Source: Aplysia californica (Eukaryota). From it: a stretch of 64,000 nucleotides of DNA. Each line of letters begins with the position of its first letter. Position 1 is the stretch's first letter. The stretch is taken from assembly GCF_000002075.1 (NCBI RefSeq), contig NW_004797451.1, forward strand, positions 388,853-452,852. The letters run 5' to 3'. Shown in pieces: positions 29,001 to 44,600 of this stretch. The notes below the pieces were generated by a model. That model was not told the origin of the DNA, searched no databases, and saw only the letters and a program-made list of their open reading frames with translations. A program made the translations under genes and the position numbers.

Positions 29001-31959
29001 TTTTGCGTAGGTTACTGTATTGTAGCTCATCTATTCTTCGGCACTTATATGACTTTATTTTGTTGCAAGTGCCATAAAACTCTAACTAAAACTTTTTTTT
29101 AAATCCCACCAAAATCTAATTTTATATTTGCTCTAAAACCTGTAGTATTCTTCTGCACTGGAGAGAAACCCAGAATGTTAATTATACTTATTTGAAGTAT
29201 GAAGAGTGAGAATTTACTTTGGAGCGATTATTTCTCCCTTTTGCGTGCCACAATTTTTTTTTTTTTGGTGCATGTGCGTAGAATGATGAGAGTGCCTTCT
29301 TGTTCTTGTTTCTTNNNNNNNNNNNNNNNNNNNNNNNNNNNNNNNNNNNNNNNNNNNNNNNNNNNNNNNNNNNNNNNNNNNNNNNNNNNNNNNNNNNNNN
29401 NNNNNNNNNNNNNNNNNNNNNNNNNNNNNNNNNNNNNNNNNNNNNNNNNNNNNNNNNNNNNNNNNNNNNNNNNNNNNNNNNNNNNNNNNNNNNNNNNNNN
29501 NNNNNNNNNNNNNNNNGATCTTAGTTCAAAGGGGTAGTTAACTATTTGGGGGGTGGGGCGGGGGAGAAAGTGAAGATGAAAGGAGACAAAAGATCATGAC
29601 TCGTTGAACCTGGGACCTTTTGAATGAGAGGCAAATGCCATACCTCTAGACCACAAGAGCCCCCGTTTATTTTCTCTTACTAATAAAAGACAACTTTTAA
29701 AAAGTACAAGTTTTTCTCTTCCCCCCACCCCCCAACAAACCAAGGAAAATTTGAATTAAAATGGCATGTTCTACATATTGCAGACACAAATTCAGAAATT
29801 CTCCCTCTTCATATGATAGATAATGTAATGTTTCAAGACTCATATAACCTGCAAACTAATTCTCCAACACAATATTACAGGTTAGGTTGCTGCCATACAG
29901 CTTCTTTTTTTTTTTTTGCTGTGGTTGCTACATCTTACTCAGGGACAACCCCCCACCCCCAAACTAGTAACACATCTGAAATATGTATCACAGACGTTGC
30001 TTGACATTGTTTTTTAGCCTGTGGAAAAGAATGAGTCGACTCATTAGATAAAGCGATATAGATAGAAATACGCTATGGCTGACGCAAAAACAATGTCATC
30101 ACATTACAAAATACATGTAGATCAGTAGTCACCCCAGATTATGTAGTTGGTAAAAATGTTATAATATGGAGTGGTAATAATATGACATGATCACAGACGG
30201 TTTAGACCACAAATTAGCTGTTTAAAAAGATGAGCCTTCAGGCCACAAATTAGCTGTTTAAAAAGATGAGCCTTCAGGCCACAAATTAGCTGTTTAAAAA
30301 GATGAGCCCTCAAGCTCTTTTTCAATGTACCAAGGGTATTAAGCCACAAATATTTAGTGCTCCAGCTTTTTTATATATGTGGTCCTAGAGCAGTATACAT
30401 TGGTGTGTTTTAGAGCAGTACACATTGGTGTGTTTTAGAGCAGTACACATTGGTGTGTCTTAGAGCCGTAGAGCAGTACACACTGATGTTTCCTTGGGCA
30501 GTAGAGAGGTTCACATTGGTGTGTCATAGAGCAGTACACATTTGTGTGTCCTAGAGCAGTAGAGCAGGACCCACTGATGTTTCCTTGGGCAGTAGAGAGG
30601 TTCACATTGGTGTGTCATAGAGCAGTACACATTTGTGTGTCCTAGAGCAGTAGAGCAGGACGCACTGGTGTGTCTTTGAGCAGTAGAGAGGTTCACATTG
30701 GTGTGTCATAGAGCTGTACACACTGGTGTGTTTGTAGAGGGTTACAATAGTAGTACACATTGGTGTGTTCTAGAGCAGTAGAGAGGTCCACATTAGTGTA
30801 TCATAGAGCTGTACACACTGGTGTGTCATAGAGCAGTACACACTGGTGTGTCGTAGAGGGCTACAATAGTAGTACACATTGGTGTGTTCTAGAGCTGTAG
30901 AGAGGTTCACATTGGTGTGTCATAGAGCACATTGGTGTGTCATAGAAGGTTACCATAGCAGTGTACATTGGTGTGTCCTAGAACCGTACACATTGGTGTG
31001 TCATAGAGCAGTACACATTGACCGTAGCTTAAACTCGGAACTCTGGTCTTTGGTGGTCATCAGCGATGTGCTGCATTTTGTTTGGAAAATCATGATTGTA
31101 TGGTCTGTTCATAAATATCTGCATTTCATTGTGAAGCAAACATCCCTTTCAGGATCAATGAATTATTTTCTGTTTTACTCTTCTTTTTTGTTTCCCCTTG
31201 TAGAGCAAATGCTCAGCTGTGGTGACCACATTAATAAGTACCCTCTGTTGTAGCTCTCTGTGATAGGATAGCTCCATAATAGATGAAAGATATGAGGAAT
31301 GAAGTATTGATTTTTTCTATACAATTAATGTTATTTCCACCCGTTTTATCTCTCTTTTTAAAAAAAACTGGATGTTAAGCCATTGCTTTGTAGATAAACT
31401 TTTCTGTAATTCGAGCAAACACATATGCCCTCTTANNNNNNNNNNNNNNNNNNNNNNNNNNNNNNNNNNNNNNNNNNNNNNNNNNNNNNNNNNNNNNNNN
31501 NNNNNNNNNNNNNNNNNNNNNNNNNNNNNNNNNNNNNNNNNNNNNNNNNNNNNNNNNNNNNNNNNNNNNNNNNNNNNNNNNNNNNNNNNNNNNNNNNNNN
31601 NNNNNNNNNNNNNNNNNNNNNNNNNNNNNNNNNNTTTGGTGTACTGTATTTCAGTGAACTCATATTTTATGAAACTGTTTTAGTATGTTAGTTTAAGGTT
31701 TTTTTCCTGCTTCACAATGTTTCTGATACTACTCCCTGTCATTTCTTTTTCCTCTCAGTGTGTATGGCTTTGCCGTGTTGACGGGCTGCTGTTGTTCTCA
31801 GATGAGAACATTAATGGGCTTTTCAATAATAATACTATGCGCAGTGTTCAAGATAATAATTATATAAGCGTAAAACTGTATAGAAGTATATGCACCCAAT
31901 CATGAACTCACATCTAGAGACACACACTCCCATACACACACACACACACGCACACACAT

Positions 31960-32668: not shown

Positions 32669-35600
32669 CTGTATGTGTGTGTGTGTGTGTCTGTGTGTGT
32701 TCATGCACCCACACGTGCATGTGTCTGGTGCTTATTTTGTTAATATGCTTCTCTTTATCCTGAAAAACTGCTTTTTGTTGGCATATTGTGGGCTTTTTGG
32801 GGGGCTGACTTTGTCTGTCGTGAATTTCTCCTCAGCTTCCTTCATCTCACGGGATCATTCAAGTTATTTTCAATCTCTGTCTGTGGGTGGTTTGCGGGTG
32901 CTCTGGTGTGGTTTGCTTCTTCTTTCCTATCAAACATCTATCGTCTTTATCTCCTCTCCTTCTTTTTTGTGTTTGTCACTCTCTTGTAACACCTCTAATC
33001 TTTGGCACTTATATGTCCTTATTGTGTTGCAAGTGCTGTAAAACTCTTACTAAAATTAAAATCTCTGTCTTTGTTTTGGTTGGTGTTGTAATGGATCATT
33101 TTTGGGCACTACTTTTGTCAAACTGCCCCTTTTTTCCCTACACTAAATGCTTGCTAATCCATAGCTGTCCTCCTCTTTACTGTGAGTGGTGGTTAGAAGG
33201 CATCTCCTTCTTGTTTACTCTATCTGTCATTTCTGCCTGTCTGAATTTTTCCGTGCTCTAAATAGCACTTATTGTTTCAAAGTGCTTCTCTTTATGGCCA
33301 TACTGTGTTGCAGGTGCAGTACAACTCTTACTAACATTTAACTCTTTACTCTAACTTTACTGAAATCCTGCATTGTATGACTGTTAATGTGGAACTGTAC
33401 TTCTCTTTCGTAATAAAAAATTTGTTTGTGTTCAGGTTTGTGGCTGGTGTGATCCTAAGGGAGAGAATCCCATCCTTCGAGGTGATGTTGTGGCGTGTGT
33501 GTCGCGGCAATGTGTTCCTGCGTCAGGCTGAGATTGACTCTCCGCTGGAAGATCCTGTCACGGTATGTTGTATGAGCACACTCTTCATTCTGTCATGAAG
33601 ACTCATTCTTGAAATTACGTATGCATGAATATCTGTGCATGCACACGAACACACGCCTACACAGATGTACAGACATTCCATCATAGTGCATACCCCTGAA
33701 CACAAGTTCTGAAATTGTATAAATTTATGAATGCCACTGCTATCTTTGTACATCCCATACAGTGGTGTCAGTAGCCTAGTGGTTAGGCTACCAGACTCAT
33801 AATCGTTAGATTGTGGGTCCAGGGGTTCGAGCCTCAATTCGGTCCGATGTTGTGTCCTTAGGAAAGGCACTTTACACGAATTTCCCATTTGGCTCAGTTC
33901 TTATGGAGGTGGACATTGAACTTGGAGGTCCCACCTCTTGAATAACCTAATAGTGTTAACAGTGGAGGGGTTAAACCTTTACCATTTCACATTTCACATC
34001 CCAAGCAGTCATGTCCTTCTCTGTTCAAAACAAGTTGTTGAACGGCCTATATGGCAAGTAATACTTCCTTTTCTTTACCTCTGTTTTGTTGTCTCTGTCT
34101 GTCTATCATGCTCTTCCCAAGCATTTAATGACTTTTGTTGCATCAATAACCTTCTTTTTACTCACGCTGTATTCTAACTACTCAAACTTTCTGTTCACCA
34201 GGGAGATAGTGTCCACAAGTCAGTGTTCATCATATTTTTCCAAGGTGAACAGCTGAAGAGTCGCATCAAGAAAATTTGTGAGGGGTAAGTGGATCAACTA
34301 GATGTGAATGGTGCTTTAACTCTTTCTACCCTGCTAAATAAAACGAAAATGTTGTCACTAGTATCGGCGTCCGATGGGGAACTGGGTTATTACCGCTAGA
34401 TGCTCCCAGCATCGGATGGGGTTTAAAGAGTTAAATGTGCTTGTAGGTATTTAAAAAACTGTTCTCATCATGACAGGGGATTGTTCTTTTTACAAGTTTA
34501 TTATTGAAATCTTTAGACTTGAGAATTTTCGTTTGTTGATGGTAGGCTTGCCAATTGTCCTGAATTTCTCGAGACTGTGGTGGATTTTAGTTTTAGTTTT
34601 AGTAGAGGTTTTACGGCACTCGCAACTGCATAAGGTCATTTGAGCGCCAGAAGATTAGAGGTGTTACAAGAGAGTAACAAACAAACAAAAAAATGAGGGG
34701 AGATAAGGACGATAGATGTGTGCTGGATTTGACAATCTGGAATTTGAGAGTGTTATAACATACACTGCACCAAAACCAGGTCCACTTGATGTAGGTTTAT
34801 TTGTTGTTATATAATCTGATGTTGTAACAAAGGGTGTCACTGATTGGGTTTTGAAAAAGTTGACGAGACTGAAATACTTTGATGCTCTGTGTAACTAGAA
34901 GAAATAGATAAACTCTTTTTTTTTTTTTTTTGTTGCAACCATTGCTGAGGTTTGTCTGCGGGACTTCATTAAAGTAAAGGGACAGCATGCTCTGTAAACT
35001 ATGTAAAAGTACTATGGGCTTACTCTTGTGTCTTTTTCATCATTTTCGTAAGAGTGGATTTTTTGGGTGTGTTGACGCAATTTTCAAGGAACTAGGGACA
35101 CGATTAAAACATAATTCTAGATGTTGAAAGGTTCACACATGTTTAAAGGGAAGGTAGGTGCTAAATGGAAAATTATACTATCTTAAGCCTTGCTTTTGGA
35201 AATAGTAAAGTTGTTTCGCAATTGTAACTTTAAACTGTTTTCCATATGAGCAAAAAAACTTGCAAGCCTTATTTATAGTTACTTTAATATGTTTTTAAAT
35301 GGGCATACAAGGTGTTTAGCCAAAAGACAAAGATTCAGTAAAAATTGGCAAACGCGGAAAATGCTGATATCTTTTATTTCATTATTTTGAGGAGCTCCTG
35401 ATTTCACCATGATGCCTCCTATGTGGATATTCTATAGATAATAAATTACTGTGCAGGTACCGAGCCACTCTGTACCCGTGCCCAGAGACCCAGGCTGAGC
35501 GACGAGAGATGGCCATAGGGGTCATGACCCGTATAGAGGATCTCAATACTGTGAGTTTTTAGTTGCTGCAGTGCTAGGAGCATGAATGTGTGTGTGTGCG

Positions 35601-38600: not shown

Positions 38601-41600
38601 GCAGGTTCTCTGGTATGGTTTGTTCTTTTCTTATATCTCCTTTTTTTGTTGTGTTTATTACTTTCTTGTAACACCTCTAATCTTCGTCACTTCTACGACC
38701 TAATTGTGTTGCAAGTACAGTAAAACTTACTAAAAAATAGACTACTCAACAGAATACCTCAGTGACTGTAATTTTTCCTCAGCACCTTTCACGTGCATCA
38801 CGTTCCCGTTCCTGTTTGCCGTCATGTTCGGTGACATGGGCCACGGTCTCATCATGTTCCTGTTTGCCCTGTACCTGGTCCTGAAGGAGAAACAGCTGGA
38901 GGCCAAGAAGATACAGAACGAGGTGGGCACAGTGTGTGGCAACGCGACGACAAAATGAATCCCTCGTCACTTTCTGCTGTTTTGAAATATGGAGCAATTT
39001 GTTGGACAGTTTTGCAGCCTATGTGGGATTTTTCCCTTGTCAAGAGTGGGTGGTTGATGGGTGCTGTAGTTTGTTGATTCCTCTTTTTAAAAATTTCTTT
39101 TCAGTTTTTCTATTAACCTCTCCTGTTCTTATAAAAAGTAGGATAAAATTATAATTGTTTTTATGAATTGTGTTATTTGTTCCTTTTACTCAACAGCTAT
39201 AATGATTTTGTTCAGACTCATGTATAAGATAATGTGTATTGGAATTCAAGTGTCATGTAGGACTAATGGCTTGTTACCTCTTTGTACTAAGTCGTATATT
39301 GGGTTTCAATAGTTTAGGTAAGTGAAATAATGCGCTATTTATTATTGACCTCCAGATTTTCAACACATTCTTCGGTGGTCGCTACATCATCCTGTTGATG
39401 GGTGCGTTCTCAGTGTACACGGGCTTCATCTACAACGACATCTTCTCCAAGCCTCTCAACATGTTTGGCTGTCAGTGGAATATACCCACCACGTAAGTTC
39501 AGGGGTCAAGGGTGGATGTGTGGAACATACCCACCACGTAAGTTCAGGGGTCAAGGGTGGATGTGTGGAACATACCCACCACGTAAGTTCAGGGGTCAAG
39601 GGTGGATGTGTGGAACATACCCACCACGTAAGTTCAGGGGTCGTGGTATATACGGGTCACGGTTTTATCCCCACCATATGAGTTCAGGGGTCAAGGTCAT
39701 GGTGTATACCCACCATCTCACATGAGTTCAAGGGTCAGGGGGTAATGGTTTTATACTCACCACGTGTGTTAAGGGGTCTGTAGGTTGTGGCATGTACCCA
39801 CCATTGAGTTCAGGGGTCAGGAGATTGTGGCATATACTGATAAAGTGAGTTGAGGGATCATGGTTCATGGAGTATACCCACCACATGAGTCAAAAGAATC
39901 AGGGGTTGACGTGTGGAATGTATTCATCCTGTAAGTTCAGGGGTCAGGGGTCGATGTATGTAATGTTTCCTCCTTGTGAGCTCAGGGGTCAGTACGAGTG
40001 CAACACTTCAAAAATTATCTTTTGCTCAAAATCTGGTAAACTGAAGACTGGGCAATTGACAGATTTTCTTGTGTGGTATGCTTCCTCTACTTCGTTTCAG
40101 TATTGTATTTCTAGTGTACAGATGAGTAGCTGGAGAAATGTGAACAATGTGAAACCCTCCCACCATATGCTACATTTCAGGGACAGCTGATTTTCTGAAT
40201 GTGATGACAGCACCCATCCCCCGATGATTCAATTGTATGGGTATTGTGAGTTTGGAGGTTAAGAATTGTTCTGAGGAACGACATCCTTAAAAAGGGTCTG
40301 TTGATGGAGGCGCACATGCCCACTATATTTAAAATGCAGAGTTCAGGGGTCAGTCAGTGGATTAGAACCTCCTTATGAGTCTTGGGGTGTCTAAAAAAAT
40401 AAACTACCACAGTCATAGCACAATTGCCTACTTCATATTTTGTCGTTTTGAGAAAACTTAAAGAAACAGTGCTTATGTAAGTCAATTTATGACTTGCGCA
40501 ATATCTCAATAAATGAGTATCTACAGCATGAAACAAAGTACTGGGGTGTGGAGGATACGAAATAAGCAACAGGCATTTTTACTGTACCATTACCTAAAAA
40601 TTTTCTTTTAAAAATGGCCCGCACATCTGTGTCACAAGTGCTGTGAAATGATCTTGAAAGAGTGAAAGTAAGAACTTTGGATTAAGCGATTGTCTGTCCT
40701 CTGCAGGGACCCCCGATACAATAACGTTTCACTGGCCAAGCATGACAAGATCAAACTGGACCCTGCGGCCACTTTCATGGACTCTCCCTACCCTATGGGA
40801 GTGGACCCGGTCTGTATTAGTTCTCTTTAAAAGTTTACTTTGGTATGTCTGTCTTTGGTCTGCTGTCAGACTTTCGTTTTACTTTACACAAAGTGAAAAC
40901 AATTTACGGCTATTAACTACAGTTGTTGGCTTTGTCTGAGTGTTTTTTATGTGAAGAAAAAATAATCTGCTTTGGGGCAATTGTCACACAGCTTCTAAGA
41001 TTATCGAAGGAAACATGTACACAGGCTTCTCAATTTGTCTAATTTATTGTTCTTTCTTTTCTTTTCGAACTGTGGAGTAGAGAGTAGTGATCTCACTTGC
41101 TGATCTTATATTGTTATTTTTTGCAACTTTTGAGTCAAAGCTTGTCTGTCTTCTTAATTTATCTGTTTTAAAATGTTGGCATCGGTAGTCTAGTGGCTAG
41201 GCTACTGGACTCGTAATTGTGAGGTTGCGGTTTCGGGGGTTCGAGATTCAAACCTGATATTGTGTCCTTTGGAAAAGTACTTCCTCACTTCACCCAGGTG
41301 AGAATGGATACCTGGCCATAGACAGCTAAAGATCTTGTCAAAGTATGTTAATGTTTTATCATCTCTAGAAATGGCAATTTGCACTATGTGCTTCCCAGGA
41401 AGTTTGTTTCAGAATTCTACTAGAGATGAAAATTTATCTTAAAAATCAAGATTATTATGTGCCTTTTGACAAAGTAACTTAAACTCATCCTTGTAAAATT
41501 TTCTTGAGCTTTTCCCTTGTTGCAAAAATATTATTTTGTCACCTCAAGAAACAATGAGTTTTTCTGGACTAATCTTCATGAGTGATTTTTATTGCTTTTT

Positions 41601-44600
41601 TTGTGTTCTCAGATTTGGATGCTGTCTGACAACAAGATTGCCTTCACGAACTCCCTCAAAATGAAAATGTCTGTCATCCTAGGGATTGGCCAGATGTTTT
41701 TTGGCATCTCGCTCAGCTTACTCAACCACAGGTTTGTCTTTCACACATATATATATAATATATCCCTGTGCACACACACTGAGGATGAAAAAAGAAACCC
41801 ATAAATAGTGGCATTTGAACTTAATTAGTCATTTAACAAGACACTGAATTATTATGTCTGAATAGAGATGAATGCCTGTGACAGATCATAAAAAGAACAA
41901 AAATGGAATAGAAGGGAACTGTGAGTCCAAAGGTTATTGCCAGTGCCACTTGTTTCTAACGTCACAAGAGAAAGAAAAAGGTAAAGTAAAGCCATTTGTC
42001 TCCTACAATACAAGAGAAAGAAAAGGATAAACTAAAGCCATTTGTCTCTTACAATACAAGAGAAAGAAAAAGGTAAACTAAAGCCATTTGTCTCTTACAA
42101 TACAAGAGGAAGAAAAAGGTAAACTAAAGTCATTTGTCTCTTACAATACAAGAGAAAGAAAAAGGGTAAAGTAAAGCCATTTGTTTCTAACAATACAAGA
42201 GAAAGAAAAAGGTAAACTAAAGTCATTTGTCTCCTACAATACAAGAGAAAGAAAAAATTAAACTAAAGTCATTTGTCTCTTACAATACAAGAGGAAGAAA
42301 AAGGTAAACTAAAGTCATTTGTTTCTAACAATACAAGAGGAAGAGAAAGGTAAACTAAAGTCATTTGTTTCTAACAATACAAGAGGAAGAAAAAGGGTAA
42401 AGTAAAGCCGTTTGTTTCTAACAATACAAGAGGAAGGAAGAAGTGAATAAAAGCCATTTGTTTTGTGCACAGACACTTCAAGCGACCCCTGAATATCATC
42501 TTTGACTTCATCCCTATGGTCGTGTTCCTGTTCTGCATGTTTGGATACCTCATCATCCTTATCTTCCACAAGTGGGTGCACTACACCTCGAAGGAGGCCC
42601 ACGATGCTCCCAGTCTACTCATAGGTAGGTCATTGGTCATGGAGAGATGCACAGTATGACCCTAGGTGGTTGGTGGGTGCTCTGGTGTGGTCTACTCCTT
42701 TCCTATCCAACGTTTATCATCCTTATCTGTCCTGAATTTTTTTCTGTGCATGTTGCTCTCTAGTAACTTCTCTAATCTTCGGAACTTTTATGACATTTTT
42801 GTGTTCCAAGTGCTGTAAAACTCTAAGTTTAAAATGAGAAAAAACAGCAACTCGTATTCGTTAGTTTTTCTGGGTTAAGATAATATTTGATTACAGGATT
42901 CAAGCTCAGAGAACTAAAGTTCGATGTCATGATTGGGGGGAAGTAATGCTTTGACTGACACAATAGTAGTTCTCAGTTTTGTGGATCAAGTAATCTTGTG
43001 TCATTTTTATGTTTATCTCTCTTTCATAGTCCATCCAGGCCCCCTACAAATTCTGAGTCTTATAACTTCATGTGTACTCATTTAAATATTTTGAATTACA
43101 TTTTTATAGAGACTATGTTTAGGATAAATGACAGTGACATCCGCGATAAACGTAAATAAATTGTCCTTTATGTTCCTACAATGGAATTTTCACATAGCAG
43201 GAAAATCTTTCTGATCTCTGCTTGTAGATTGATGTTTATAATGGCTTATACTGTTGTAATGTTTCTCAAAACCATAACCATTGTGCATACACTTAGATTT
43301 GGTTGAAATATAGAGATAAGCTCACATCTGAACCGATATTTGAAGTGTCATGGGTTAAAAATATTGGACTTATTATGTTTTGGCTGATTTGAAAAAAATT
43401 GACGTCTCTCTTTCCTTTTCTTATGGGGGCTTGGAGGACACCACTGATGGATCCTGATTCTTTATTTTCTTTCATTTGTCTCTGTTGTCTGTCTTACCAT
43501 TTTCCCTACCCTTAAATGAATGAATCTGTGTCTTACTACAAGCAAACAAAGGAACAATTGCCTTGTCTCTTTTCCAGGTCTGATCGACATGTTCCTCTTC
43601 AACTACGGGAAGCATCCTCTTATCTACAGTGGTCAGGTGAGAGCTTGGAAGGCTCAAGCTGAGTCAAGTAGTCAGTACTGTGCAACTATTATGTAAAAAG
43701 GTTATTCCCTCATCCGATCCGGACATTGGGGATTGCCTTGTTAGTGAGACAACATCCTGGGCCTTCAGCATATTGTGGTTGGGTGGCCAGTTCCTTTCCA
43801 CGCTGCCTTAACTTCCCTAACTCGAAGTCAGGTACCCATTACTGCTGGGTGAGCAGGAGGGGGCAAAAAGATTCTGTGTCCGAACCGAGGCTCGAACCCG
43901 GACTTTCTGCTCTGGTGGCAAGGGCACTAACCGCTCCGCCACCGCACCCTCTACATATTATGTATACAGTGGAGGTTGTCTGAGACAAGTGGACGTTGTG
44001 GACTGTCATTTTGACAAAAATAAAACATGGGGGGGGGGGGGGGGGGAGTGAGAAGTTGTTGTTTGTACGAGTCTTTGTCTTGGACAGGTGGCCATTAAAG
44101 TAAGTGTGACTGTATTTTGAATATAATTTATTCAAAGTACAGTTGAACATGTTCGTACATAATTCAATTGTGAAAGCAGCAAGAAGTCCAATAATTATAA
44201 TATGAGAAAATAAAGAAAAATAGGTTGTGGAGAAGCCTAAACACACATCAACAAAAAAGCGTCCTTGCGTTGAGGCTTTTCTAAGTTTTTTTTGTTTTTT
44301 AAAATTTATTCAGGTCTATTTTGAATTATTAGTTAAGTAAGGGACTGATCTCCCTCAAGAAGATTCATGCTCATACTGATCAGCAGAAGTACTGGATTTG
44401 CTGCTGAACCCCAGTCACTATGTTATGTGCTCATAGGTGATGATACAGATTCAGTGAAAGACAGTGAATGCTATTTCCACCATGGTGTATAAGGTAACCT
44501 AAAACTTAGGGTTAAAAGAACCTAAAACCTCAATCCCCAAAAACAGTTTCTCTCTTTCTTGTCTTCAGAAAGGGTTCCAGAGTTTCTTGGTGGTGCTGGC

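Follow-up and report, generated by a model that had tools for sequence, protein, structure and literature searches.

A minisatellite spanning the exon 12 donor of an Aplysia californica V-ATPase a-subunit gene multiplies a splice donor of which the later copies are probably silent

The window analysed here is a stretch of 64,000 nucleotides of Aplysia californica contig NW_004797451.1 and carries a gene for the a subunit of the V-ATPase. Protein P0002 (836 aa; NCBI label V-type proton ATPase subunit a1, Aplysia californica) is placed on 20 exons in the window, while its residues 67-98 were not found in the window's readable letters; the name "coding exon 12" counts these residues as one exon, by analogy with a paralogous gene. 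Coding exon 12 (39356..39492, plus strand, 137 nt) encodes residues 447-493 with 100% identity to P0002 and ends in phase 2, and its donor pairs with the acceptor at 40707 of coding exon 13 (40707..40809, plus strand). Pfam family PF01496 gives exon-by-exon matches both on this contig and on the paralog on contig C753 (stretches L009, G000:C753:206500-215500, and L031-L033; minus strand), which has matching exon borders. The host gene, exon and acceptor named in the initial annotation of this DNA agree with the recorded protein, with an exon count that uses the paralog analogy.

A minisatellite lies at the border between exon 12 and intron 12, and is called by Tandem Repeats Finder as 3.7 copies of period 45 with 99% matches (39475-39642), followed by weaker pieces at 39752-39837 and 39899-39992. 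The junction word CCCACCAC/GTAAGT, in which the slash marks the exon-intron border, occurs in 4 copies at 45-nt spacing, and the GT of the GTAAGT that follows ACCCACCAC falls at 39493, 39538, 39583 and 39628, just as had been described initially for a 45-bp unit with identical CCAC/gtaagt donors. Eleven exon-side letters are common to all four perfect donors. Unit 1 (39475..39519, plus strand) joins the exon end to the authentic donor CAC/GTAAGT, with its GT at 39493; units 2-4 (39520..39642, plus strand) are intronic copies, identical to one another, that carry the pseudo-donors at 39538, 39583 and 39628, the use of which would lengthen the exon to 182, 227 and 272 nt, respectively. A single synonymous difference, T in unit 1 versus C in units 2-4, is found at 39481.

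Overall, the array counts 12 units, the 4 with perfect donors and then 8 decayed ones (units 5-12, 39667..39991, plus strand), in keeping with the earlier remark that the units degrade with distance. The decayed units have 29-35 of 45 letters alike and score 32-50 when the unit is aligned along the intron, where none of 986 control windows exceeds 27; by the same measure, a possible lone remnant at 40300..40352 (plus strand) is borderline, with a score of 29. The initial annotation had composed the unit of the last ~18 exon nucleotides and the first ~27 intron nucleotides; the anatomy is right, while the exonic share of the copied piece may be about 27 nucleotides instead of 18, as suggested by exon-like letters that extend to 39466 across a 2-nt gap, a likeness that could be due to chance. 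A dispersed or mobile repeat is ruled out, since a 23-nt junction word searched with up to 2 mismatches in the 927-Mb genome has 4 matches, all of them at the array (0 for the reversed control). An in-frame protein repeat, which the 45-nt spacing could suggest, is likewise ruled out, because the exon frame hits a TAA within donor 1.

The array is genuine and not an assembly artefact. In run X5, an independent sample that is probably DNA, contigs end at 39511 and resume at 39613, and a separate 71-nt piece (39572-39642) has a depth of 120.8 versus 38-49.7 in the flanks, corresponding to a ratio of 2.4-3.2 on the repeated 71 nt where 3 is expected. Both the breaks and the 3-fold multiplicity match the prediction made from the 31-mers of the window. 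An over-expansion of the repeat in the reference could be read from the identity of units 2-4, but it is scarcely credible in view of these breaks and of the roughly threefold depth, and mis-assembly cannot yield eight diverged units. Moreover, X5 has a net gain of 25 nt near 39653 (39653-39695), within the decayed part, which indicates that the array differs from one sample to another; X5 and the reference look alike in the number of perfect units. In the same run, a latent GTAAGT of intron 12 at 40477 reads CTAAGT (G>C), indicating that donor-like sites arising by chance in this intron are gained and lost from sample to sample.

As for the origin of the array, an old tandem duplication of the junction, taking in about 27 exon and 18 intron letters, would have started it, slippage or unequal crossover would have enlarged it, and the far units would have decayed, while the near end would have been recently re-copied from one unit. 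The recent re-copying is suggested by the identity of units 2-4 and by the C that they have in common where the exon has T (39481). Gastropod relatives retain QW-x-I/F-P at the end of the exon, and this conservation indicates that the exon was the source and the repeat the copy. The exon-intron border is itself a CpG (C/G), and 6 of the 8 old units have CA, TG or TA in its place, changes of the kind that methyl-CpG decay would give. At the donor place, GT is retained in 4 of the 8 decayed units (39764, 39845, 39931 and 39976) and lost in the other 4, which carry AT, so that the T at +2 is present in 8/8. The loss of donors in the old units may hence be ordinary CpG mutation, and the decay pattern needs no selection for or against spare donors.

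Donor-spanning minisatellites are known from other genomes. The 37-bp VNTR of human F7 intron 7 has a first unit that spans the exon-intron border and repeats identical donors (Borensztajn et al. 2006, PMC1557585; the VNTR is also treated in PMC6627357). In F7 minigenes, only the functional site lying most upstream is used, the downstream donors being functional yet unused, and 5'-to-3' scanning was shown, in mammalian cells and not in a mollusc (PMC1557585). Like F7, the Aplysia array has several identical donors for one acceptor, later sites that would lead to aberrant transcripts, and the upstream-most donor in the normal product. In contrast, the F7 unit copies 4 exon nucleotides and the Aplysia unit 18-27, 5-9 near-perfect units are present in F7, where alleles are known, and 4 perfect plus 8 decayed ones in Aplysia, and the choice of donor was established with 50 constructs in the mammalian case, while it is deduced in the mollusc. 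In human CBS intron 13 (31-bp VNTR) and 6-16 intron 2, two extra donors are used besides the real one, whereas in the human LMNB2 100-bp and PDGF intron 4 81-bp minisatellites the real donor alone is used (PMC1557585). In all of these, as in Aplysia, a junction-spanning minisatellite has multiplied a donor, although the use of the extra copies differs among the precedents; the CBS unit is mostly exonic, with 24 exon and 7 intron nucleotides according to its notation c.1444_1467+7(16_21) (PMC2630376).

Tandem copies of exon-intron borders in an invertebrate are also known as the amphioxus "mirages" (Adh3 and the globins BflGb6 and BflGb9), which occur on either side of an exon, have units of 10-160 bp, in many but not all cases keep the AG/GT, are length-unstable and locally homogenised, and appear not to disturb splicing (PMC3087553). 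They belong to another phylum and, for Adh3, somatic instability is reported. Furthermore, the Aplysia pseudo-donors resemble the latent 5' splice sites that are abundant in mammalian introns, unused donors preceded by in-frame stops (PMC3510495; such sites are also covered by PMC1524910), in that they lie 3' of the real donor, would give a stop if used and are probably silent, as latent sites normally are; ordinary latent sites are chance matches, whereas the Aplysia copies are exact and include the exon-side context. The first unit of the Aplysia array spans the real border, its donor is repeated exactly in three further copies, and the array derives from its own junction, as in the F7-type arrays and the mirages. 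By anatomy, it belongs to the known class of donor-spanning minisatellites, to which it adds a mollusc example. No paper on this locus was found in the Aplysia V-ATPase or NMD literature among the matches listed, a weak negative, with subscription papers mostly missing there.

The exon frame across donor 1 reads ...WNIPTT followed by a stop, with ACG TAA at the border, and the in-frame TAA (39494..39496, plus strand) would be kept if any later donor were used. It would then lie 41-131 nt ahead of the new joins, with 7 introns further downstream. The stop announced in the initial annotation, in the reading ACC ACG TAA, is therefore present. The "poison donor" reading attached to it finds no support, since the paralog, which is free of the repeat at that place, shares the phase-2 intron together with its AC/GTAAGT and ACG TAA, and the donor at 34285 of the same gene also reads straight into a stop. 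These two cases indicate that the stop is not special; it is what any GTAAGT donor gives in a phase-2 intron (xxG TAA), and not a design. An immediate stop follows 2 of the 19 mapped donors of the V-ATPase gene, and a stop within 50 codons follows 17 of the 19. The sole unusual trait of exon 12 is how many equal donors follow it, with 3 within 500 nt downstream versus one such site at 2 of the 18 other donors. The donor is also a good one, with a rank of 5 out of 19; both the rank and the count use a matrix trained on the same 19 donors, and the count is a rough guide. Of the features of a regulated poison donor (AS-NMD), the premature stop upstream of later junctions is there; the array is absent from the paralog, and the bare stop is the one such feature that the locus shows.

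The sequence QWNIPTT-DPRYNN is found in both full-length proteins recorded for the cluster (P0002, 836 aa; P0121, 890 aa), a reading that corresponds to a phase-2 joint between donor 1 and the acceptor at 40707, and the loop has an equal length, within a few residues, in 14 other gastropod proteins. No truncated product is present among the 120 matches listed of 869, where only P0002 is 100% identical; transcripts cleared by NMD would be under-counted, and they would be missing from the recorded proteins. Among the 20 runs on record as containing the stretch, none is listed as RNA, a blank that speaks neither for nor against expression. Four of the 24 listed runs were compared with the window, including X5 and three raw poly(A) RNA runs, which yielded 37-44 reads per run, the majority coming from dispersed repeats at the edges. 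The depth on exon 12 in these RNA runs is 0-1.04, no read fits two places, and no splice joint reaches the threshold of three reads at this depth of about 1 or less. The bin 39449-39555 has depths of 0.40 and 0.42, equal to 43 and 45 letters; by arithmetic, X22 and X23 each have a single read, which stops at about 39492. Two such reads are compatible even with a large leak to later donors, and NMD would hide the stop-bearing forms. The copies share the same 9-mer score, and folding predicts the four donors to be similarly accessible, copies 2-4 being unpaired with a probability of 0.65-0.70 at span 70. Silencing of the later donors by RNA structure is ruled out by this similarity and by the fact that the region shows no stronger folding than its shuffles (z = +1.0). 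Donor 1 is the likely choice on the basis of the recorded proteins and of the precedents, the direct evidence being thin.

Taken together, the first donor is probably the one used, and the later copies are likely to be silent pseudo-donors that have no selected role. Exon definition from the upstream acceptor, or an F7-like 5'-to-3' scanning, would commit the transcript to the first good donor, and a rare slip to a later one would retain donor 1's TAA and be removed like any other splicing noise. This coincides with the second of the alternatives offered in the initial annotation, a strict choice of the most upstream donor, which the two recorded proteins (2/2) and the F7 precedent favour; the accompanying premise that competing donors split usage, given there as established, lacks that standing for this geometry, since the identical downstream donors of F7 are functional but unused, even if two additional donors are active in CBS and in 6-16. 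It is on CBS and 6-16 (PMC1557585) that one would model a leaky and unselected array, in which a measurable share of the transcripts, at least several per cent, goes to donors 2 and 3, the products end at Thr493 and are degraded or persist as a non-functional half-subunit at a tolerated cost, and the number of copies has little effect, since competition involves the nearest ones only. The equal 9-mer scores, the similar predicted accessibility and the ordinary size of the longer exons (182-272 nt) are in line with such a leak. Nevertheless, it is considered unlikely, as F7, LMNB2 and PDGF have the first site alone in use, the listed protein matches lack the truncated form, and the RNA depth is 0 from 39556 to 40625, over the body of the array, in 3/3 raw runs, although depth on the exon itself is about 1 or less.

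A further proposal of the initial annotation was that the number of perfect units sets the NMD-bound share of the transcript and thereby tunes, from animal to animal or with conditions, how much V-ATPase a subunit is made. The array is mutable, as the 25-nt gain in X5 demonstrates; the CBS 31-bp junction VNTR is reported to be associated with reduced activity, and stress activates latent donors in human cells (PMC3510495). Against this stand the stop, which predates the array, the paralog, which lacks the array, and the presence of a similar array in an unrelated neighbouring gene (serine hydroxymethyltransferase, SHMT); in addition, the only length change seen falls in the decayed part and leaves the perfect-unit number of X5 apparently unaltered, and the downstream sites of F7 do not compete (PMC1557585). 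Tuning is thus unsupported and very improbable. Its mechanistic premise, that the mollusc spliceosome lets identical donors compete and that each perfect unit diverts a fixed share of the mRNA into the stop-bearing form, is deemed quite improbable as well. If it were true, the array would act on a proton-pump subunit as a rheostat set by copy number, and arrays born at junctions, which affect two donors and one acceptor within about 40 kb, would be a recurrent source of heritable expression differences in this genome; the array would matter more only with a large leak that follows copy number. The T/C difference, 12 nt before the cut, tells donor 1 from the later copies in spliced reads, and with this marker existing deep RNA data could test in a mollusc the "first donor wins" rule of F7.

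With regard to the frequency of such arrays, 36 minisatellite loci (34 with the three pieces of the present array taken as a single locus) with a median period of 33.5 were found in 412,042 readable bases, a non-random sample made up of the window and 41 neighbouring or paralog-flanking stretches. Random placement would put a minisatellite on about 0.2% of donors, or on 4% of genes with 19 donors; donor-spanning arrays are therefore uncommon per gene and expected many times per genome. Among the 25 loci outside the window, one touches an exon end detectable by Pfam (122 flanking frames scanned; Pfam misses many short exons), versus a random expectation of about 0.1 of 25 under the rough assumption of about 0.2 donors per kb. 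An enrichment of minisatellites at splice sites is not supported by 1 locus in 25. The locus in question, by which the kind is no rarity here, is a second donor-spanning minisatellite, with a unit of about 27 nt, which follows an exon of the SHMT gene, closest to mitochondrial SHMT (L010:7603-8056; G000:C181, about 467603-468056), about 15 kb beyond the window. It offers 16 donor-like places, many of them CTAG/GTGAGG, the first being at L010:7615 in phase 1. A second weak match, to zf-C4 in stretch L013, is below the family cut-off and was set aside because it looked non-coding; beside it, at L013:146-345, 100 nt are duplicated exactly and in tandem within DNA that appears to be non-coding.

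Within the V-ATPase gene, a second minisatellite of 46 nt in about 11 copies (41945..42461, plus strand) occupies intron 13 and runs at its end into the pyrimidine tract of the exon-14 acceptor, a tract to which its units are similar; five of the units carry CTAAC. No CAG or TAG occurs in the 46-nt units, the only one being the real one at 42470, so that the units provide no spare acceptor of the usual type. A long intron of the same gene houses a complex compound minisatellite (30386-31020) with periods of 25, 33, 58, 91 and 119 nt, away from the mapped exons. Lastly, the sole minisatellite of the paralog stretch L009 (5875-6032, 53 nt in 3 copies) is intronic and lies away from the mapped exon ends.
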